IMG/VR virus record: IMGVR_UViG_3300034061_004620
Reading direction: 5' to 3' (one strand)
DNA length: 64,000 nucleotides
DNA from: a virus
Taxonomy: Duplodnaviria; Caudoviricetes
Shown here piece by piece: positions 4,601 through 55,748 of the stretch (positions are counted from its first letter, which is position 1; the number at the start of each line of letters is the position of its first letter). A program made the position numbers and the translations under genes. The notes under the pieces were generated by a model. The model did not search any database. It was given only the letters and a program-made list of their open reading frames with translations, and was not told the DNA's origin.

Positions 4601-5435
4601 AGGCATTGATACTTTATCCACTGTGGCAGCAAATACCGTAGTACGTTCTGTGGAATTAACTTCAGTAAACGGAATAAGAGCATTAAACATGGTTCTTAAT
4701 TCTAATATAACAGCATCAGTTGGTGCAGTTTTAAAATTTGATGGTACTGCACGAGTCGACTATGCTGTGTCTGGCCCTTTTAGTCAAATAAATGGAAACA
4801 CTGTTGAAAATTGTAAAAGATTAGGTCTAATTGACGGAGTTACAAATTTTGTAGAGAACGAGCTGATAATATTTGTAAACCAACAAAACTTTGGTCCTGA
4901 ATACGTCAACGACGGGTGGATTTTAACTGACGGTATAACAACGGTGCCCGGATATTTAGAAAAATTATCAGAGCAATCAAATGTTAACCAACGAGGAGGA
5001 GCATGGCAACTCACTTGGGAACCGTTGATACCATTGGGATTTGATAGCGATGAAGCGGGTTTTGATGAAGCCAGCCCGGGATTTGCATATTCAAGGTTTG
5101 AGCAAGGAGAAGATGCAGAAATCAAGCTTGAATTCCAAAACGAAATAAATTTAAATCAAACTGTCAAAGTACGTACTGGTAAAACCTTTCCTGCAAGCAC
5201 CTTACAATATAGATCAAATGCAGGTGAATCAATTCCGAGATATAGAATATTTACAGGATCACTCGCAAGTGAAGAAACTACATTTGACGGAGGCAGTTGC
5301 CAATGTCGCGAAGGGGATCCAGGAAAAGGTGGCGTTCGCGGCGGTACAGCGTTCAGTAACAATAGAGACAAATATATCATTCCAGAATCTGAGGATAAAT
5401 ATATCAAGTTCCCACAAAATGGAGTATTCGTATAA
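1683..5435 (+). CDS. Large virion structural protein, probable baseplate wedge subunit with Ig-like (He_PIG-type) repeats
   Basis: 1250 aa. Repeated GELPGGMYL..SGEL.G / PPGTSLSADGKLSG / LPLGLQIN..TGWLFG Ig-like motifs and repeated TTFD motifs. Lies next to the tail fibre. Confidence 0.7.
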   Translation: MSTITWITSKGDLGTVPEARFFSQQFSAVDSDEQPLIYNFIAGELPGGMYLTRSGELRGVPVILSPVGQTASYSFTIRAINPQGKVADRSFFITVSNVAGPEIFPRPNLIGAFFDGEYLEYQFDSINANPAATETWSLLAGNIPPGTSLSADGKLSGYLDVVASNTDLLGYEATGIESVVYDVLPESTDRNYNFTIQVSDGTKYDTLNVRVLVVSKSNFTGDNDITLINNTFLSIDQDNRYRPVILNAPDSLPVRVSGDMFAYKFLAYDPEDEDISWKVDELAFSGMDDLDAADDQILVGNGTAGPYILSQPAAANEICVRVNDILLTAIDDYTVSTPNIFSFTNFAISTIVRTNDEVVVTLSNPHSYVTGDIIDVYGVTNITFNGRFTVSEVVSDTVLKYNQGATDASDSTGTLATRAPSPTDVVEVLFISSVTGFDTIRFDQGAEGLPLGLQINQATGWLFGTLPAQTEDTKTYDVTIRAYRTLFVDYLSDPVTFKLTVKRTRNEEIIWNTPTDLGFIDNGSISELTISATNTVGKELEYSIVYQPYRRVPQGLKMLRSGNFVGKVTFRYFSLDGARGFLPLTTTDGIEVGMSVQGVGVAAGCEVTDIIENNTIEIRPAIYVVQGTPLTFSNDTNTIVVSTRANAISTVIDGGDTTFDQDARFSVKAESVDKSISAVKNFVVHIRPRNLAPYENLYLKALPKEEQRLGLKNVLEDPNIIPKELLYRSDDAFFGLQKNLKFLFLPGLSASRVDTVVNSIALNHYTKNLNFGEIKTARAIGKDGSIDYEVVYADVIDSQQFDTKGPPLSVSLNNKNKFKFGASEYDTIYPNSFNNMQNRVEQGLGYTNRGALPRWMTSVQENGYVLGLTRAVVVAYTKPGSSKLVAYRLKNSGFKLNSIDFVVDRYQWDNYLSKFYDINAARFLPSRDTTFDKFPNLGAGSDVITGSMIFPVTNSNAVTITDNLKIGYGWICTGIDTLSTVAANTVVRSVELTSVNGIRALNMVLNSNITASVGAVLKFDGTARVDYAVSGPFSQINGNTVENCKRLGLIDGVTNFVENELIIFVNQQNFGPEYVNDGWILTDGITTVPGYLEKLSEQSNVNQRGGAWQLTWEPLIPLGFDSDEAGFDEASPGFAYSRFEQGEDAEIKLEFQNEINLNQTVKVRTGKTFPASTLQYRSNAGESIPRYRIFTGSLASEETTFDGGSCQCREGDPGKGGVRGGTAFSNNRDKYIIPESEDKYIKFPQNGVFV

Positions 5436-40008: not shown

Positions 40009-40670
40009 TAGTACATCCGTTACGTAATAATTATTGGACCCGAAGAGGTTACGTAACTGGTACGTGTATGTATCACAGTGAACTTAAACAGTGCTATATT
40101 AACATTCCAAAAAATGCAAGTAGTTTTTTAAGGGAAGTGTTTAAAGATACCGGTTGGAAACACATGCATCTTGGAATGACTATGGATATAGAAAACTACA
40201 TAGTAATATTACGTGATCCGGTTGAAAGATGGATTACGGGAATAGCGCAACATATCACAACCAACATCTTAGGTGAAAATTTTGGTAGTACACATTATCT
40301 TGAACAAAGTAATGAATTAGTCGATCGTTTGATTTTTGATCAAATAGTATTTGATGATCATACTGAACAGCAATCATGGTTTTTAGAACCATTTGATCTT
40401 AAAGATGGTGTATTTTTTTATTGTGATGCAAATCTCAATCAAAATCTTGATAGTTATTTTGATTATAAATTTAAATTCGCCAATAGGCCTTATGTGAATA
40501 CAAGTGCATCGCAGTTTGATAATCAGAACTTAGTTGCTTATTTCAAGAAGCTTGTATACAATAACAAAACATATTATAATAGAATTAAATCCTACTTTCT
40601 CAGAGATTACGACTTAATAAACTCTGTAAACTTCTATGACTCAAGACAATCTTACAGCCAAACAAAATGA
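40005..40670 (+). CDS. Sulfotransferase-family protein
   Basis: PAPS-binding motifs YINIPKNASS and ILRDPVERWITG. Confidence 0.75.
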   Translation: MIVHPLRNNYWTRRGYVTGTCMYHSELKQCYINIPKNASSFLREVFKDTGWKHMHLGMTMDIENYIVILRDPVERWITGIAQHITTNILGENFGSTHYLEQSNELVDRLIFDQIVFDDHTEQQSWFLEPFDLKDGVFFYCDANLNQNLDSYFDYKFKFANRPYVNTSASQFDNQNLVAYFKKLVYNNKTYYNRIKSYFLRDYDLINSVNFYDSRQSYSQTK

Positions 40671-42201
40671 CTATGCAGTGTTTTTGCCTGCTATATCTGG
40701 ATTCTATGCAACTTTTATAGGAAAACAACGTGTTAACAATGACTATGTTGATCCTGCTCGTATGCCGCAGGCATTACAAGACATGGAGCAATTCAACTGG
40801 CTTAACAGCCATCACGCTCTCTTTCCGTACCGATGGAGTCTTTACTCCGGAGGACACGCCAACCTTGATCTAACCAAAGAAGACCCTTCGGAAGATATGG
40901 TTCGTAAGCGAGAACCAGGTACTTTTATGTTAGGTGACTCTGGCGGGTTCCAAATTGCCAAAGGCTTGTGGGAGGGCGACTGGAAAGCCAACTCAGGATG
41001 TCCTCGGGCACAAAAGAAAAGAGAATTAGTACTTAAATGGTTGGATGGTATTGCAGACTATGGAATGATTTTAGATATTCCAACTTGGGTAATTCACGAC
41101 AAAAAGGCAAGTATCGCATGTGGAATAACTACATTACACGAAGCCGTTGCTGCAACCAAATACAATAATCAATATTTTATGCAGCATCGCAAAGGTAAGA
41201 ACAATGGCGGAGCAAGATTTTTAAACGTGCTGCAAGGCGATAATCATACATCAGCCGACGAGTGGTATCAAGAAATGAAAGAGTTTTGTGATCCTAATAA
41301 ATACCCAGACACACACTTTGATGGGTGGGCCATGGGCGGACAGAACATGTGTGATGTTCATCTTGTTCTAAAACGATTGGTAGAACTTAGATATGACAAC
41401 CTGTTACAAGAAGGAGTGCATGATTGGATGCACTTTTTAGGCACAAGTAAACTTGAATGGGCAGTGTTGCTTACTGTAATACAGCGGTCAGTACGTAAAT
41501 ATGTCAATCCAAAATTTACCATTTCATTTGATTGTGCAAGTCCTTTTCTGGCTACTGCCAACGGTCAAGTTTACCACCACATCGATTTACCTCACAATGG
41601 TAAATGGTGCTACCGTATGAGCCCTATAGTAGATGATAAAAAATATGCTACTGATACCAGACTATATGGCCAAGCTGTGCTGGCAGATGGACTTATTGAT
41701 ATTTTTGATGAAAGTCCTATTAGTAAAAATATGATGATGAAGGATGTGTGTGTTTACAAACCTGGAGATCTGAACAAGAATGGCAAAGAAGGTCGAACCA
41801 GCTGGGATAGTTTTAGTTACATGCTGCTCATGGGGCATAATGTTTGGACCCACATAGAAGCAGTTCAACGAGCCAACAGAGAATTTGATGCTGGATTTCA
41901 TCCTGCCATGATGCGACATGATCATATCGAAGCAGAATATTTTGAAGATATCGTAGAACGTATATTTGCAGCGCCAACAAAGCAAACTGCATTAGATATA
42001 GTCAATGCCGACAAATATGCCAGACCAAAAGGTTATTGGGAACAGATTGTCGGCACAAGAGGTTTCAAAGGAGAAAAAACTACTAATTCTTTCACAATGG
42101 CAAATCATCATTTAGAGATAGAAGGATCAGTTAAAGTGGATAAAGTTAAAAAAGAACAACCAAAACCAATTTTATTGCCTAATTTATTTGAGGAGACCTA
42201 A
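40636..42201 (+). CDS. dpdA: tRNA-guanine-transglycosylase-like protein, probable DNA base-exchange enzyme (DpdA-like)
   Basis: TGT signature LGDSGGFQ, plus LDIP, VLQG, GWAMGG, HFLG and SFDCASP; clustered with folE/queD/queE. Confidence 0.75.
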   Translation: MTQDNLTAKQNDYAVFLPAISGFYATFIGKQRVNNDYVDPARMPQALQDMEQFNWLNSHHALFPYRWSLYSGGHANLDLTKEDPSEDMVRKREPGTFMLGDSGGFQIAKGLWEGDWKANSGCPRAQKKRELVLKWLDGIADYGMILDIPTWVIHDKKASIACGITTLHEAVAATKYNNQYFMQHRKGKNNGGARFLNVLQGDNHTSADEWYQEMKEFCDPNKYPDTHFDGWAMGGQNMCDVHLVLKRLVELRYDNLLQEGVHDWMHFLGTSKLEWAVLLTVIQRSVRKYVNPKFTISFDCASPFLATANGQVYHHIDLPHNGKWCYRMSPIVDDKKYATDTRLYGQAVLADGLIDIFDESPISKNMMMKDVCVYKPGDLNKNGKEGRTSWDSFSYMLLMGHNVWTHIEAVQRANREFDAGFHPAMMRHDHIEAEYFEDIVERIFAAPTKQTALDIVNADKYARPKGYWEQIVGTRGFKGEKTTNSFTMANHHLEIEGSVKVDKVKKEQPKPILLPNLFEET

Positions 42202-42420: not shown

Positions 42421-43968
42421 ATGACCAAAGTTGTAATATTAAGCGTCCCATGGTGTGAAGCTTTTCCTTTGGTAGCGCCTGCATTATTAAGTAAATGTCT
42501 ACAACAGGCAGGCATTGACTCAGCTGGATTAGATTTAAATATAAAATTTATTCAAGAATTTTATAATAAACCCTATTGGAGTAATTTAAAGATTTTTTTG
42601 TCAAATGGATATGTAGATAAACAACTAAATTATCGTAGAATGATAATTGATTTATTTAAATTTATAAAAAGAGAACTTTTGGCAATTAATTTAGAACATA
42701 ACCCAACTCATTTAGGTTTGTCTATCTTTACAAACGAAAGTATTAACTTTAGCTATCTTTTAATTCATTATATCCGAAAATATCTCCCCCATGTAAAAAT
42801 TATTGTAGGCGGACGAGGTATAGAATCTGATTGCTCTTTAGAAAAAAAACCGCATTACCAGAAATATTTTGATCACGGTCTGGCAGATTTGATAGTAGTT
42901 GGTGATGCCGAAACAGCCATAATTGAATCTATTAAATCCAATCATGATGGCATATATTTTTCTAAAAAACAAAATCAACAAGACCTTGATAATATTCCGG
43001 CTCCGGACTGGAGTCACTATAATTTTTCTTTATATAGTACGCTTACAGACGAATTTGCACCTGCTGATAGATTAGCCGCCACATTTAATCCACAGGCTAT
43101 ATCTATTACTGCAAGTAAAGGATGTGTAAGAAAATGTACATTTTGTGATGTTGCCAATTATTGGCCAAACTACATTTATCGAGACGGTGCAAATGTAGCA
43201 AGAGATATAATAACCACTTACAGAACAACTGGAATTAAAAATTTTGAATTTACAGATAATTTGATAAATGGTAGTATCTCTCACTACAGAAAAATGAACA
43301 CTATCTTGGCAGAAACTATTCCAAGAGAAATTGCCTATAGTGGGTATGCGATTTTTAGACAAAAAGAATCAATGCCGGCCGAGGATTTTAGGTTAGCCTC
43401 ATTAGCAGGATGCGAAGCATGGGGAGTTGGTGTTGAATCAGGAAGCGAAACTGTTAGATACCACATGCGGAAAAAATTCAATAACGACGACTTAGATTTT
43501 GGAGTCAAACAATTACACAAAAACAATATAAGACAAACTTGGTGTTTAATGGTTGGATATCCAACTGAAACTGAGGATGATTTTAAAGAAACACTAAATT
43601 TATTACGTAGATACAAGAATTATAATAACAACGGTATGATTTCATTAAATATTACACAACCGTTTCAATTAAATCAAAATACTCCTTTGATGCAAGAAGA
43701 AGAATTTACATCAACACTTAATTGGGCACACGAAGGAGATAGTAATCACCATGAAAGATTTTTTTGGGTCACTCCTGGAAATCCTGGTAACAATTTCTTA
43801 TCACGATATAAAAGATGGCACCAGCTTATTGATTTATCCGAAGAATTAGGTTATTCTTACCATATGCGAATGGCTCTGTTATTTTCAAAATGGCGAGACG
43901 AACTTGAAAGTTTAAAACAAATTTATGAACAATCAAATAAAAAAATTTTCTTTTTCAGTCGAGCTTAA
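42421..43968 (+). CDS. B12-binding-domain radical SAM protein
   Basis: N-terminal cobalamin-binding-like domain (GLSIF, IVGG, VVGDAE), SKGCVRKCTFC, GVESGS, LMVGYPTET. Confidence 0.85.
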   Translation: MTKVVILSVPWCEAFPLVAPALLSKCLQQAGIDSAGLDLNIKFIQEFYNKPYWSNLKIFLSNGYVDKQLNYRRMIIDLFKFIKRELLAINLEHNPTHLGLSIFTNESINFSYLLIHYIRKYLPHVKIIVGGRGIESDCSLEKKPHYQKYFDHGLADLIVVGDAETAIIESIKSNHDGIYFSKKQNQQDLDNIPAPDWSHYNFSLYSTLTDEFAPADRLAATFNPQAISITASKGCVRKCTFCDVANYWPNYIYRDGANVARDIITTYRTTGIKNFEFTDNLINGSISHYRKMNTILAETIPREIAYSGYAIFRQKESMPAEDFRLASLAGCEAWGVGVESGSETVRYHMRKKFNNDDLDFGVKQLHKNNIRQTWCLMVGYPTETEDDFKETLNLLRRYKNYNNNGMISLNITQPFQLNQNTPLMQEEEFTSTLNWAHEGDSNHHERFFWVTPGNPGNNFLSRYKRWHQLIDLSEELGYSYHMRMALLFSKWRDELESLKQIYEQSNKKIFFFSRA

Positions 43969-48570: not shown

Positions 48571-49147
48571 AGAAATTGCACAATTTGAACAACTATTAGC
48601 AAAGAAAACTGGGGCACCTTATGCCATCATGACCGATTGTTGCACTCATGCAATAGAGCTTTGCTTGAGATATCAACGTGTGAATCAAGTGGCCTTTACA
48701 GCCTATACCTATTTGAGTATTCCCATGCTCATGCACAAATTAGGTATCATGTACATGCACACCGATGAAGCATGGATTGGCGAATATCAATTCCACGGAA
48801 CCAACATATGGGATAGTGCCAGAAGATTAGAAAACAACATGTATAGACCTGGTATGATGCAATGTTTGAGTTTTGGTCATAACAAGCCTTTACAAATAGG
48901 CCATGGTGGTGCTATACTATTAGATGACAAAGAGGCATATGATGTTTTATTACAACAGAGATATGATGGACGGAACCTTAGTATCCAACCATGGCAAGCC
49001 CAGCAGGTTTTCAAGGTGGGTTACCATTATAGGCCAACTATTGAAGATGCAAGGATCGGTTTAGAAAAATTGTATTTTGTTAACGAACCGCCTAAATATC
49101 ACGACTATCCAGATCTTAGAAACATACAAATTATTGGAGACACTTAA
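48560..49147 (+). CDS. Short DegT/DnrJ-family PLP aminotransferase
   Basis: CCTHAIEL, WDSA, SFGHNKPL (PLP Lys), GHGGAIL; only about 195 aa; likely GTG start. Confidence 0.75.
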   Translation: MAFEEIAQFEQLLAKKTGAPYAIMTDCCTHAIELCLRYQRVNQVAFTAYTYLSIPMLMHKLGIMYMHTDEAWIGEYQFHGTNIWDSARRLENNMYRPGMMQCLSFGHNKPLQIGHGGAILLDDKEAYDVLLQQRYDGRNLSIQPWQAQQVFKVGYHYRPTIEDARIGLEKLYFVNEPPKYHDYPDLRNIQIIGDT

Positions 49148-49911
49148 TGGTTTATAACAAAGTATACGAAAGCAATGACGAAACAGGATTAGATGCAATG
49201 GCCGGTGACGGTGGTTACAAAGAATCAACATTGTCAGCTGCTATTCGTGCCAGAATGAAACGTGACGGTAAAAGGTATTGGGCCGGAGACAACATTAGTG
49301 ATTACTTACACGAAAGCGATCGAGAACATTTGATCAATGAGGCTACCGAAGCATTTGAGAAGGTGTTAGACACGCTACTAATTGATAGAGAAACAGATCC
49401 TAACAGCCAAGGTACTGCACGCCGACTTGCAAAAATGTACTTCAATGAATTGATGGCAGGAAGATATGACCCAACACCTAACGCAACTGCGTTTCCAAAT
49501 GACACCGAAGGAGCATACGACGGCATGCTCGTCGTCCGTTCTGAGCTTAAGAGTGTTTGCAGCCATCATCACCAACCTGTTACAGGCGTTGCATATATTG
49601 GCATTATTGCTGGTCCCAAACTCATTGGGCTTTCTAAATACACCCGAATTGCCCAATGGTGCGCTCGTCGTGGAACGCTACAAGAAGAACTTTGCATGGA
49701 CATTGCACGAGAAATTGAATTTGCAACTGGAAGTAAGGATGTGGCTGTATATATCCAGGCGACGCACGGATGCTGCGAGAATAGAGGAATTATGGCACAC
49801 AGTAGTCTTACCCAGACCACAGTGTTAAGAGGTGCGTTTAAGGATGATCAAAGCACCAAGAAAGAGTTCTTTGACAACATTAAACTACAACAGGAGTTTG
49901 CTCCGCGATGA
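49147..49911 (+). CDS. folE: GTP cyclohydrolase I
   Basis: SVCSHHHQP, GLSKYTRI, LQEEL, HGCCENRG. Confidence 0.95.
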   Translation: MVYNKVYESNDETGLDAMAGDGGYKESTLSAAIRARMKRDGKRYWAGDNISDYLHESDREHLINEATEAFEKVLDTLLIDRETDPNSQGTARRLAKMYFNELMAGRYDPTPNATAFPNDTEGAYDGMLVVRSELKSVCSHHHQPVTGVAYIGIIAGPKLIGLSKYTRIAQWCARRGTLQEELCMDIAREIEFATGSKDVAVYIQATHGCCENRGIMAHSSLTQTTVLRGAFKDDQSTKKEFFDNIKLQQEFAPR

Positions 49912-52245: not shown

Positions 52246-53037
52246 ATGAACATAGGTATAGTCGGAATGGGCTATGTTGGGCGGGCAGTTCAGGCATCGT
52301 GGTTGGGCTCTCAACACAAAGTGAAATATTATGATCCTGCTGTGGACGGATCGGTGAGTGATTTACAAGAATTAGTTAGTGGTAATCCGTCGGCGATTTT
52401 TATATGCGTACCTACACCTTCTATAGATACTGGCGAATGTGATCTTAGTATTATAATAACAACATTAGATCAAATAAAAACAACGTATTCAGGTATGATT
52501 GTTATCAAAAGCACAGTACCACCAGATTTTTGGCAGGCTTATATCGCACATGATAACATCTTTCATGTGCCTGAATTTTTAGTAGCAAGTCGGGCCATTC
52601 AAGATTATCTTAATCCTGAATTTATTTTTATTGGTGGAAATAAAAGTCAGACTCATAAAGTTTCACAATTACTTGCTTCAAGTGCCGTTAACACAGCCGT
52701 TCCTATATATTATACAGATCTAATCACTGCAAGTCTTGTGAAATATTTTATGAATACCTTTTTAGCTACCAAAGTAACAGTACTAAACCAGTTCAGTCAA
52801 CTGAGCAACGCAATTGGTGCCAATTGGGATGATTTTACTCAAATGATTGAAATAGATAATAGAATGGGATCGAGTCATACTCAAGTTCCCGGTCCAGACG
52901 GCAAATACGGATACGGAGGTGCTTGCTTTCCCAAGGATGTTCGTGCTATAATACATTCCATGCAAAAGCACAATGTAAGTGCAGGCATAATCGAAGCAGT
53001 TGACGCTGCTAACACACAATTCAGAGGTAAAGAATGA
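52246..53037 (+). CDS. UDP-glucose/GDP-mannose dehydrogenase-family protein (short form)
   Basis: GIVGMGYVG, FICVPTP, VIKSTVPP, PEFL, KYFMNTFLATKV, GYGGACFPKD. Confidence 0.85.
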   Translation: MNIGIVGMGYVGRAVQASWLGSQHKVKYYDPAVDGSVSDLQELVSGNPSAIFICVPTPSIDTGECDLSIIITTLDQIKTTYSGMIVIKSTVPPDFWQAYIAHDNIFHVPEFLVASRAIQDYLNPEFIFIGGNKSQTHKVSQLLASSAVNTAVPIYYTDLITASLVKYFMNTFLATKVTVLNQFSQLSNAIGANWDDFTQMIEIDNRMGSSHTQVPGPDGKYGYGGACFPKDVRAIIHSMQKHNVSAGIIEAVDAANTQFRGKE

Positions 53038-53585
53038 GCAAAGTATACTACACCAATAAACACGTTAGATCGTGGATACACTCTATCGTAAGAGAAATGA
53101 CGAATCAAAATTGGCGTCCAGATTATGTTGTAGGCTTGACCCGTGGTGGCCTTATACCTGCCGTCCTTATTAGTCAATATTTAGGCGTTCCTATGCATAC
53201 CCTGAATGTTAGTTTAAGAGATAGTAATTTAGGCCCAGAAAGCAATTTATGGATGGCCGAAGAAGCGTTTGGATATGTACCCGACGACGAAAGAAATGGT
53301 AGTGATACCAAAGTTGATCCAGCATATAGAAAAAAAATCTTAATCGTAGATGATATCAATGATACTGGTGCCACTCTCGAATGGATAAAAAATGATTGGA
53401 CCAGTGGATGTTTGCCCAACCACAGTGCGTGGGATAGCGTTTGGAATAAAACAACGCGATTTGCTGTGTTAGTGAACAACGAAGTAAGTAATTTTAAAGA
53501 CGTTGATTATGTTGGAACATCTATAAACAAACATGAAAATCCTATGTGGGCAGTATTTCCTTGGGAAGCGTGGTGGGAGAGATGA
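53034..53585 (+). CDS. Purine phosphoribosyltransferase (Gpt-like)
   Basis: VVGLTRGGLIPA, PRPP-binding ILIVDDINDTGATL, WAVFPWE. Confidence 0.85.
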   Translation: MSKVYYTNKHVRSWIHSIVREMTNQNWRPDYVVGLTRGGLIPAVLISQYLGVPMHTLNVSLRDSNLGPESNLWMAEEAFGYVPDDERNGSDTKVDPAYRKKILIVDDINDTGATLEWIKNDWTSGCLPNHSAWDSVWNKTTRFAVLVNNEVSNFKDVDYVGTSINKHENPMWAVFPWEAWWER

Positions 53586-53920
53586 TCGCCCTGCCGCCTG
53601 GTTGTACAGTAACTTATGCTGTCTGGGTTGATGTAGATAAACTTACAGACGAAATGGTAGAGTGGTATCGTCTAATAGATGGCGAAGTATATCAAGACCG
53701 ATGGTACGATACTCGAGGTCGAGAACAATCAGTGTATTATGTAAGTTACGGTAAAGGTAAAAGATGTCACCACCATCAAAACGGCGCAGGTGGTACTAAA
53801 TTACATTTTCATGGCGACGATGCCAGTGCTGCCAGTATGTTTATTATGAAATTTTTTGAACATGTAACAAATAGCAATTTGAGAGAACAAATGGAACGGT
53901 ATAGTCGTGAAATAGCATAA
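53582..53920 (+). CDS. Hypothetical protein
   Basis: ATG 53582 overlapping the upstream stop. Confidence 0.6.
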   Translation: MIALPPGCTVTYAVWVDVDKLTDEMVEWYRLIDGEVYQDRWYDTRGREQSVYYVSYGKGKRCHHHQNGAGGTKLHFHGDDASAASMFIMKFFEHVTNSNLREQMERYSREIA

Positions 53921-53927
53921 ATAGTTT

Positions 53928-54104
53928 ATGTGGTCCTTAATTATAATGTTACATGCTGTTTCTCCAAACGTTCCGCCATCAAAGGGTTCAATTAGTTTTG
54001 CTACACAAAATTTTGAAGAATGTCAAAAAGTGAGAGATCAGGTAATAAAATCATGGGCATCTGACCGGTATCGTGTTACAGCAAATTGTATCCCTAACAA
54101 ATAA
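53928..54104 (+). CDS. Small exported protein (58 aa)
   Basis: Translated by hand; TAAATA at 53918; hydrophobic N-terminus; two Cys. Confidence 0.6.
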   Translation: MWSLIIMLHAVSPNVPPSKGSISFATQNFEECQKVRDQVIKSWASDRYRVTANCIPNK

Positions 54105-54128
54105 AATAAAATAAATATTTTTCCACAC

Positions 54129-54196
54129 AGCGGCCTTTCTGGCATTCATCCCGCTTTACAAATTCTGCAAGCCTATGTTAATATTAATATAGGAGA
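54129..54196 (+). promoter_or_regulatory. Structured 5' leader of queD (riboswitch-like stem-loop plus SD-sequestering hairpin)
   Basis: AGCGG/CCGCT stem, 17-nt loop, A-rich tail, then the 9-bp hairpin CCTATGTTA-atat-TAATATAGG covering the SD. Confidence 0.5.
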
Positions 54197-54202
54197 ATCA
54201 AA

Positions 54203-54718
54203 TTGGCAAAGTTTTACTCAACAAAAACATATGGTAATGACCGAGGACTGTCATGTTGTTTTAGACAATGGCGTGCCACACACAGTCATTGTTCAACATT
54301 ACATGGCTACTCAATTGGCATTAAATTGATCTTTGAATGCGATACACTGGATGACAAAAACTGGTGTATGGACTTTGGTGGACTCAAAGAATTCAAAGCA
54401 TGGGCTGATCACATGTTTGATCACACCTTGATAGTCGCCGAAGATGATCCGATGTTGGATTTTTTTAAACACATGAACGAAATAGTAGATATTGATAGCA
54501 AAGATCATTTAAGTAAATTTCCATATGCACGTGGCGCATTATGTGATTTACGTATTGTGCCGGGTGTAGGATGCGAAATGTTTGCCAAACTATGCTATGA
54601 CAAAATGGCTGAACTATTAGCATCGGGAGAAATGCGTTATCCAATCAATCCAACAGTGCGTGTTAAATCAGTAGAAGTATTTGAACACGGTGCTAACTCA
54701 GCCACATACGAAGGTTAA
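54203..54718 (+). CDS. queD: 6-carboxy-5,6,7,8-tetrahydropterin synthase
   Basis: HCSTLHGYS, WCMDFGGLK, FDHTL, GCEMFA, VEVFEHGANSATY; TTG start. Confidence 0.88.
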   Translation: MAKFYSTKTYGNDRGLSCCFRQWRATHSHCSTLHGYSIGIKLIFECDTLDDKNWCMDFGGLKEFKAWADHMFDHTLIVAEDDPMLDFFKHMNEIVDIDSKDHLSKFPYARGALCDLRIVPGVGCEMFAKLCYDKMAELLASGEMRYPINPTVRVKSVEVFEHGANSATYEG

Positions 54719-54720
54719 CA

Positions 54721-55584
54721 ATGAGCAAAATTAAAGTAGCAGAACTGTTTTACAGCATACAAGGTGAAGGACGCTACATGGGTGTTCCCAGTGTGTTCTT
54801 GCGTACATTTGGATGTAATTTTAAATGTGCAGGCTTTGGTATGCCACGTGGCGAAATCAGTATTGAAGCAGATGATGTTGCATACACACATGCAAATATT
54901 GAATACTTTCACAAATATGAAGAACTTCCGTTAGTTAAAACTGGTTGTGATAGTTATGCCAGTTGGCACCCGGCATTCAAGGATCTTAGTCCGGTAATAG
55001 ATTCTGACGGTATTGTAGAGCGCATCATGCAAATTCTTCCGCACGGAAAATGGAAGGATGAACATCTGGTAATCACTGGTGGTGAACCTCTGTTAGGATG
55101 GCAGCGTAGTTATCCAGACTTGCTCAACCACCCACGTATGCGTAAGTTAAAAGAAATTACTTTTGAAACTAACGGTACTCAAGAGTTAACTGCTGATTTT
55201 GCAGATTATCTTGTACAATGGCAAATGCCTGGTCCTAATTTTTCTCGCGAGGTAACTTTTAGTGTAAGTGCAAAGTTACCAGCCAGTGGAGAATCGTGGA
55301 TCGAGGCTATTCGTCCAGAGATTGTACGTCAATATCAGACTATTGGACATACATATCTTAAGTTTGTTGTAGCCACAGATGAAGATGTAAAGGATGCGCT
55401 AAAGGCAGTTGAACAATATCGCAATGCCGGCTTTCATGGATCTGTTTATCTAATGCCCGTAGGTGGAGTAGAAAGTGTTTATTCATTAAATAATAGGCGA
55501 GTGGCAGAATTAGCTATGCGACATGGATTACGTTATAGTGATAGATTGCAAGTACCATTATTCAAGAACGAATGGGGAACGTAA
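54721..55584 (+). CDS. queE: 7-carboxy-7-deazaguanine synthase (radical SAM)
   Basis: ELFYSIQGEG, VFLRTFGCNFKC, CDS, ITGGEPLL, FETNGT. Confidence 0.9.
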   Translation: MSKIKVAELFYSIQGEGRYMGVPSVFLRTFGCNFKCAGFGMPRGEISIEADDVAYTHANIEYFHKYEELPLVKTGCDSYASWHPAFKDLSPVIDSDGIVERIMQILPHGKWKDEHLVITGGEPLLGWQRSYPDLLNHPRMRKLKEITFETNGTQELTADFADYLVQWQMPGPNFSREVTFSVSAKLPASGESWIEAIRPEIVRQYQTIGHTYLKFVVATDEDVKDALKAVEQYRNAGFHGSVYLMPVGGVESVYSLNNRRVAELAMRHGLRYSDRLQVPLFKNEWGT

Positions 55585-55748
55585 CTTCGCCTTGCAATAA
55601 TATTTGCAAATTAAATACAAATGATATTTGTACAGGATGCTTTAGAACAATTGCCGAAATAAGCAACTGGGCCAAATATACTGATGAAGAAAAAAGTGCA
55701 ATAATTAGACAATTACAAAACAGAATTCAAGGAGATTCTTATGTTTGA
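55572..55748 (+). CDS. DUF1289-like Cys-rich protein (58 aa)
   Basis: Translated by hand: SPCNNICKL...ICTGCFRTIAEISNW. Confidence 0.75.
   Translation: MGNVTSPCNNICKLNTNDICTGCFRTIAEISNWAKYTDEEKSAIIRQLQNRIQGDSYV

Follow-up and report, generated by a model that had tools for sequence, protein, structure and literature searches.

A covarying pseudoknot in front of phage queD genes, a candidate RNA switch with a preQ1-I-like layout

Among the described systems that bear on the RNA reported here, the Vibrio vulnificus add adenine riboswitch is a translational ON riboswitch, and the pseudoknot in the leader of T4 gene 32 is bound by its own gene product, which represses. The pseudoknot/hairpin equilibrium of E. 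coli rpsO/S15 is an established precedent for a leader whose state is selected by a protein (PMC3985624). For layout, the system to compare is preQ1-I, an H-type pseudoknot with a P1 helix of 5 base pairs (bp) and an A-rich tail, in which the base adjoining the P1 3′ strand on its 5′ side is a specificity cytosine, with U before it in type I and A in types II and III (PMC11625349). Here we describe a 75-base leader, at about 54129-54202 of a 64,000-nucleotide stretch of DNA from a lake phage of the Caudoviricetes (IMG/VR record IMGVR_UViG_3300034061_004620; the whole stretch is called the window below). The leader lies 5′ of a queD-like gene. We think it probable that this RNA acts in cis as a switch, with an H-type pseudoknot at its core that a ligand locks, and that it turns on the translation of queD-queE.

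A covarying pseudoknot and its relation to preQ1-I

Taken by itself, the fold of this leader is unremarkable. The minimum free energy (MFE) is −17.3 kcal/mol, compared with −15.2 ± 3.0 for shuffled sequences (z −0.70), which alone is not unusual, and the case for a structure therefore rests on comparison. The relatives were taken from IMG/VR, where there are hundreds. The same leader is present at 75 of the 80 loci that were anchored on the QueD protein of the window (77-95% identity), and most of a second set of 80 loci, fetched via a marine QueD, carry the motif as well. Two helices, P1 and P2, are common to about 100-170 distinct queD leaders of lake and marine phages and together form an H-type pseudoknot. 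A direct reading of the letters finds every listed element of the leader at its coordinates (Table 1). In the window, P1 closes a loop of 17 nucleotides (nt), CCTTTCTGGCATTCATC, and is followed by the tail TTACAAATTCTGCAAG. The P2 pairs are G54141-C54173, G54142-C54172, C54143-G54171 and T54145-A54169, with A54144 and A54170 mismatched.

Both helices were scored in two alignments, one of 53 sequences made with MAFFT and anchored on QueD (A1), the other of 100 sequences and based on a model that was fitted to P1 only (A2). In A1, P1 is 99.6% and P2 84.0% paired; in A2 the figures are 99.8% and 84.3%, and in each alignment nine of the ten pairs show two-sided change. Covariation reaches 0.418 in A1 (shuffle mean 0.153, slid registers 0.02-0.11) and 0.419 in A2 (shuffle mean 0.147, slid registers 0.04-0.08), values that none of 500 shuffles equalled in either case. 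Two-sided change is found at four of the five P1 pairs in A2 (AU87/UA11; CG64/AU28/UA7; GC96/CG3) and at all five P2 pairs in both alignments.

The helices themselves are correspondingly varied. P1 occurs as AGCGG/CCGCU, AGAGG/CCUCU, UGCGG/CCGCA, AGUGG/CCACU, AGUCG/CGACU, ACCGG/CCGGU and AUCGG/CCGAU. P2, in which the bases directly 5′ of the loop UCAHC pair with those directly 3′ of the tail UGC, takes more than 40 distinct forms among relatives, e.g. GGCAU/AUGCC, GACGC/GUGUC, GACUU/AAGUC and GGCG/CGCC, and further GGCAA/UUGCU, AACG/CGUU, GGUG/CACC and AUGGCAU/AUGUCAU. The contiguous length of P2 averages 4.22, and exchanging loops and tails among sequences lowers this to 2.81 ± 0.11.

A sequence-only reading of this locus had proposed a preQ1-I-like leader, with the stem AGCGG/CCGCU, in front of queD-queE. 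Comparison bears out both parts: the stem is conserved and covaries in homologous leaders, and a small H-type pseudoknot of preQ1-I-like layout, with covarying P1 and P2, does precede the phage genes. For the tail, three pairings back to the loop had been offered. One of them, GGC/GCC, is the covarying P2 once a U-A pair is added to it. The other two fall away, with CUU/AAG paired in 49% and GCA/UGC in 75% of cases, the latter showing no two-sided change, and with covariation not above shuffles for either.

The loop varies between 13 and 19 nt among relatives, and the variation sits in L1, where insertions and deletions are not multiples of three; the leader region is thus not coding. Several unpaired bases are conserved. 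Of 151 distinct aptamers, 149 have C directly before the P1 3′ strand, and the base preceding this position is U in 115, A in 15 and C in 21 (T54149-C54150 in the window). The C and U of the N-C-U that begins L1 occur in all 151, a count that is partly forced by the search pattern; both bases are also seen in the QueD-anchored set. In A1, C27 is invariant, as are A35, A37, A39, T41, C42, G44 and C45 of the tail (A1 numbering). About 7 nt of A-rich sequence open the tail, which then reads a near-invariant YUCUGC. Since its UGC does not covary with the loop, pairing does not account for the conservation of these three bases. Unpaired bases remain conserved across differing promoters, expression platforms and phage types. 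The leaders accordingly show the general layout of a riboswitch, with covarying helices, conserved unpaired bases and varied platforms that offer mutually exclusive pairing.

The queD leader is absent from Rfam, and no description of the motif was found in the searched literature. Scans with Rfam 15 (cmscan, E ≤ 10) returned no credible family for the window, as a 1.3-kb or a 101-nt piece, or for two relatives, L224 and L008. Membership in preQ1-I, II or III is not supported by the Rfam models. The preQ1-I model (RF00522, gathering cut-off 39 bits) gave no hit at E ≤ 10 either in scans of 101-121 nt from these three leaders or across the 1.3-kb piece. Run on five related phage records, it missed the queD leaders save for one alignment of 9.3 bits (E 6.9), while control genomes matched. 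Its alignments elsewhere in the related records (16-20 bits) were rejected, as they lie in coding or A-rich sequence and not in leaders. The preQ1-II model (RF01054) reached an insignificant 14.1 bits on L008 (E 5.5, cut-off 47) and gave nothing on the window or L224, and preQ1-III (RF02680) matched none of the three. The pseudoknots of these two families are of the HLout kind and about double in size.

Two further Rfam families, FTHFS (RF02981) and freshwater-2 (RF02980), align weakly to L008, at 13.9 bits (E 4.4) and 14.8 bits (E 2.7), far under their cut-offs of 72.6 and 49.9. Like these families, L008 has a hairpin over a TATAAT-like box, then a UGCGG..CCGCA hairpin and an AAGGAG site. Kinship with FTHFS was set aside: RF02981 is absent from the five phage records, a scan for consensus words gave chance matches only, and the resemblance is unproven.

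Judged by sequence comparison, the motif is preQ1-I-like in its working principle and is not a member of that family. The two share the H-type pseudoknot with a 5-bp P1 that is found in types I-III, the C directly 5′ of the P1 3′ strand with U or A before it, an A-rich tail whose 3′ end pairs back to the loop, and a gene context of 7-deazaguanine synthesis. They differ in several respects. The queD leader lies below detection by RF00522. Where preQ1-I has a UU, UC or other U-rich dinucleotide atop the P1 5′ strand and a short L1, the L1 described here starts N-C-U and is 3-10 nt long. P2 is longer, at 4-7 bp, and L3 has 13 nt and ends in a near-invariant UCUGC that has no preQ1-I counterpart. 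In the pattern scans the motif turned up in phage contigs only. Finally, the P2 3′ strand of preQ1-I includes a portion of the Shine–Dalgarno (SD) element or stands before a terminator, an OFF arrangement, whereas the SD of the queD leader lies 15-40 nt downstream.

Pairing of the switch strand with the ribosome-binding region

At least four types of expression platform occur among the leaders, and each of them puts the P2 3′ strand inside a helix that covers the SD or the start codon. In the lake platforms this switch strand goes on to read GUCAUUG or GUCAUC; its pairing partner at the start codon is CAAUGGC or GAUGGC. In the MFE fold of the marine platform, AAGUCAUC pairs with GAUGACUU. In the window-type platform the CC that ends P2 also begins a CCUAUG/CAUAGG hairpin, conserved within the platform (CCTATG/CATAGG in the DNA), which holds the GG of the SD. 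When leaders are folded without pseudoknots, the MFE structure of 157 out of 164 distinct leaders pairs two or more of the five nucleotides of the P2 3′ strand with the SD or the start region. The longest complementary run between the P2 3′ strand and the SD or start averages 6.9, against 4.5 for shuffled strands. The P2 5′ strand, in turn, mimics the start region: it reads AUGGCA in the lake group and GACUU in the marine group, where the start is AUGACUU. Along with it change the first codons of the gene (MAK.. versus MTY..).

Modelled accessibility points the same way. With the P2 strands blocked, the unpaired probability of the AUG rises from 0.22 to 0.45, and 83 of 123 closed leaders open by more than 0.2. 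The 9-bp SD-sequestering hairpin of the sequence-only reading is present in the window, with the AGG of AGGAG at the end of its 3′ arm. Intact, this hairpin contributes −7.3 kcal/mol; once the two C-G pairs that would go to P2 are removed, −1.4 kcal/mol remains. In the modelled starting state, G54192 and G54193 of the SD are fully paired (0.0 unpaired) and the A-G of GGAG is at 0.79/0.78, and when P2 and L3 are both engaged, all four GGAG bases are 0.94-0.96 unpaired. The short upstream open reading frame (ORF) that had been pointed out in this region, MLILI, is present in the window, but its length and frame vary among relatives, which read ATG-CTA-TAA or continue into the SD. We therefore set it aside as incidental to the CCUAUG arm of the hairpin.

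Because the P2 3′ strand is shared with the anti-SD or anti-start strand, folding of the pseudoknot should free the ribosome site. This sets the queD leader apart from preQ1-I and predicts an ON switch. Feedback repression, the logic first proposed for this locus, does not fit such an arrangement, as the P2 3′ strand overlaps the strand opposite the SD or start and not the SD itself. Could the leader nevertheless be a divergent preQ1-I riboswitch, with preQ1 or preQ0 as a ligand that favours the SD-sequestering hairpin and so represses queD-queE? Its topology is that of preQ1-I (5-bp P1, C preceded by U or A, A-rich tail), and its gene context is the one that bacterial preQ1-I controls. However, RF00522 finds none of the three representatives at E ≤ 10, L1, P2 and L3 are all longer, UCUGC stands without a counterpart, and P2 competes with the sequestering helix rather than holding the SD. 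We consider a repressing preQ1-I variant very unlikely.

For the ON switch that we favour, the following mechanism may be envisaged. Three conserved single-stranded pieces, i.e. N-C-U, U-C-A-H-C and the A-rich tail with UCUGC, would by H-type topology meet at the P1-P2 junction. This is the place where preQ1-I holds its ligand, and a pocket may occupy the same position here. The invariant C suggests a ligand with a guanine-like face, which is common to pterins and 7-deazaguanines. A small molecule with such a face would bind at the junction and lock the pseudoknot; a 7-deazaguanine or pterin intermediate of the FolE-QueD-QueE route is the candidate. The P2 3′ strand would have two exclusive partners, the aptamer loop in the pseudoknot or the ribosome-binding region, and in the window the competing partner would be the GG of AGGAG, through the hairpin at 54172-93. 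Locking would remove the anti-SD strand, and ribosomes would then initiate on queD-queE. We infer the binding of a ligand, its identity and the direction of regulation.

The wiring has a parallel in the add riboswitch, where the aptamer helix and the helix that hides the SD or start also share a strand and folding frees the ribosome site. In other respects the two are unlike. The add aptamer belongs to the purine class, folds as a three-way junction and is unrelated in sequence or fold, and in the queD leader the shared strand lies in the pseudoknot helix.

Distribution, promoters and neighbouring genes

A loose first pattern gave mostly chance matches in genome contigs, and a stricter pattern was used for the counts. 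In 185,579 species, with one genome each, the strict pattern has three matches, all on 4-8 kb contigs of metagenome-assembled genomes, which look like mis-binned phage. In IMG/VR it has at least 120. Among the IMG/VR matches listed, 118 of 122 copies of the motif lie 5′ of a QueD-like gene. In two cases one more gene is inserted between the motif and queD-queE, a cupin in one and a weakly methyltransferase-like ORF in the other; one copy precedes a double PTPS-like gene, and one has no ORF before the end of the contig. As queD is often followed by unrelated genes (UvdE, DAHP-synthase family), queD itself is taken to be the regulated unit. The carriers range from complete 355-kb jumbo phages of lakes to small marine contigs. 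Two loci, L057 and L058, have a second full copy (1341-1396, 52.5 bits) before a radical SAM ORF of 312 amino acids, 1.6 kb 5′ of the queD copy; the platform of this second copy keeps the hairpin and has no obvious AGGAG.

Such a distribution brings in a further explanation, namely that the pseudoknot is an operator for a protein, either QueD in autoregulation, the more plausible case, or a phage translational regulator, with no small molecule involved. A queD or PTPS-like gene is the sole gene always found with the motif, and the conserved loops are as compatible with a binding site for protein as with a pocket for a ligand. There are also parallels in rpsO/S15 and the T4 gene 32 leader, where a pseudoknot alternates with hairpins beside the start codon, and the latter provides a phage precedent for a 5′ pseudoknot. 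However, those RNAs are bound by their own product and repress, as autoregulators usually do, whereas the conserved fold of the queD leader is predicted to expose the start. Widely differing phages with different promoters retain the motif, which makes a shared trans-acting factor other than QueD unlikely, and the topology suggests that the conserved bases gather at the helix junction, as in preQ1-I pockets. On balance we regard a protein operator as unlikely.

Four loci (L061, L063, L071 and L073, at about 2250-2903) have a duplicated promoter and a truncated copy of the leader, with P1 and loop only (21 bits), before an ORF of 183 amino acids that carries a NUMOD3 motif, as if a homing endonuclease had inserted just 5′ of the intact queD leader. 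The region 53900-55000 of the window recurs in metagenome runs of lake water that come from at least 16 studies (2020-2025) and contain 50-99% of its sampled words. Three lake metatranscriptome runs contain 4-7% of them.

The leaders also differ in their promoters. TAAATA lies at most 30 nt 5′ of P1 in 39 of 57 window-type leaders, compared with 24 of 112 others. In the window, ATAAATA is rarer than expected by chance (13 copies versus 26.6), and 11 of the 13 copies are on the + (coding) strand. At least six of the + strand copies, at 5395, 7831, 32402, 38255, 53917 and 54111, stand 11-92 nt before ORF starts and resemble T4-type late promoters; among the ORFs preceded by ATAAATA, queD has the longest leader. 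A sigma-70-like consensus, TT[TG]ACA-N16-18-TAnnWT, is present in 28 of the 57 window-type leaders as against one of the 112 others, and TGnTAnnWT in 47 of the 57. The −10 element of this embedded promoter, TAATAT, falls in the loop of the SD hairpin. Transcripts from it would come without the aptamer and the anti-SD arm, which suggests a regulated long and an unregulated short mRNA. At five other loci (L008, L011, L015, L046 and L047, about 2895-2925) an upstream TTGAC..TATAAT promoter has a short hairpin overlapping its −10 element, with the compensating changes UACGC/GCGUA, CACU/AGUG and ACACU/AGUGU.

These promoter data bear on whether a ligand is required at all. The leader could be a two-state device that times queD expression during infection, with a balance set by temperature, Mg2+, polyamines, translation of an upstream ORF or the choice of promoter (ATAAATA versus sigma-70-like). 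Promoter type does covary with platform type, an internal promoter would bypass the aptamer, and in marine phages no more than about 10 nt separate the start of P1 from the upstream ORF's stop codon. That said, a thermometer or a coupling device would not need near-invariant unpaired bases in three loops, and the strict link to a queD-type gene favours a signal that is specific to the pathway. A ligand-independent leader seems to us quite unlikely.

The features of the locus are collected in Table 1. The queD-like product scores 36 bits with the NCBIfam QueD model, under the cut-off of 89, and shares 45-48% identity with annotated phage QueD across residues 1-171. Its TTG start at 54203 is upheld by phage QueD homologues, which align from residue 1, and by most relatives, which have ATG at this position. 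NCBIfam QueE models likewise score the queE-like product under their cut-offs.

Table 1. Elements of the queD leader and the two genes that follow it, with coordinates in the window
Feature	Coordinates	Strand	Remarks
ATAAATA box, putative phage late-type promoter element	54111..54117	+	11 nt 5′ of P1; predicted promoter function
P1 5′ strand AGCGG	54129..54133	+	pairs with 54151-54155
L1 CCTTTCT, starts N-C-U	54134..54140	+	length variable across relatives
P2 5′ strand GGCAT	54141..54145	+	pairs with 54169-54173
L2 TCATC, last base the near-invariant C adjoining the P1 3′ strand	54146..54150	+	consensus U-C-A-H-C
P1 3′ strand CCGCT	54151..54155	+	covarying helix P1
L3 tail TTACAAATTCTGC, A-rich then near-invariant UCUGC	54156..54168	+	from conservation counts
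P2 3′ strand AAGCC, the switch strand	54169..54173	+	CC common to the SD hairpin
SD-sequestering hairpin, 9 bp, loop ATAT	54172..54193	+	arms 54172-54180 / 54185-54193; 3′ arm covers A-G-G of the SD
Sigma-70-like promoter, TTTACA (54155-60), 18 nt, TAATAT (54179-84), TG at 54176-77	54155..54184	+	consensus scan; putative function
Shine–Dalgarno AGGAG	54191..54195	+	7 nt 5′ of the TTG start
Mini-ORF ATG..TAG, five codons, MLILI	54175-54192	+	direct reading
queD-like gene, PTPS / T-fold family, TTG start	54203..54718	+	Pfam PTPS 3.2e-16
queE-like radical SAM gene	54721..55584	+	begins 3 nt after queD; PHROG 2076 'QueE-like radical SAM' 2.3e-50

Upstream in the window are a FolE gene (49147-49911) and a gene like a xanthine/hypoxanthine (purine)-type phosphoribosyltransferase (53034-53585). 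The FolE, phosphoribosyltransferase-like, QueD-like and QueE-like genes are syntenic in the window and in loci L057, L469 and L481. A tblastn search of the 64-kb window with proteins of phage Iggy found neither QueC nor DpdA, and in the five related phage records Pfam TGT is absent and QueC weak or partial. Biosynthesis of toyocamycin is an example of a 7-deazapurine route at the nucleotide level. The set of genes seen here, with FolE, phosphoribosyltransferase, QueD and QueE and without QueC and DpdA/TGT, could speculatively mean a route of this kind and not the exchange of DNA bases.

Of the other genes in the window, an ORF of 521 amino acids at 40636-42201 has no match in Pfam or PHROGs, and one of 515 amino acids at 42421-43968 is a B12-binding radical SAM protein. 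A DUF1289 protein of 58 amino acids (3.1e-20), at 55572-55748, overlaps the last 13 nt of the queE-like gene. A megablast search of INPHARED found no near relative among cultured phages.

Implications for phage biology

Several points weigh against a ligand-locked ON switch. All described preQ1 riboswitches repress (PMC11625349), and biosynthetic genes are not usually under ON switches. The QueD protein could be the effector, since queD is the one neighbour that always accompanies the motif. Some of the conservation counts derive from sequences that were selected by pattern. The thermodynamic modelling leaves out pseudoknot and tertiary energies, and in it 12 of the 164 leaders turn less accessible with the P2 strands blocked. 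When P2 alone is blocked in the window, UUCU of L3 re-pairs with the SD, and opening needs L3 to be engaged too. Transcripts from the embedded sigma-70-like promoter could escape the switch altogether.

A more specific version of the ligand-locked ON switch is one that we put forward tentatively, as a serious possibility on which we would not insist. The leaders may form a riboswitch class found only in viruses, preQ1-I-like with an enlarged junction pocket, that senses a metabolite of the pathway and switches on translation of the queD operon. The metabolite would be a pterin (dihydroneopterin triphosphate or CPH4) or a 7-deazaguanine (CDG or preQ0).

Phage riboswitches have rarely been reported (PMC9004378), and none for 7-deazaguanine genes used in phage DNA modification was found in the searched literature. 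The queD leader motif is abundant, small enough for direct biochemistry and clearly covarying. If it binds a ligand, it would be a new deazapurine or pterin aptamer, the preQ1-I fold would have its first activating relative, and phages would be regulating the 7-deazapurine pathway through metabolite sensing. The three-way match between aptamer loop, switch strand and start codon illustrates that the first codons of a gene can co-evolve with a regulatory RNA. If the ON class is true, the phage would couple its making of 7-deazapurines to the metabolic state of the cell that it infects.

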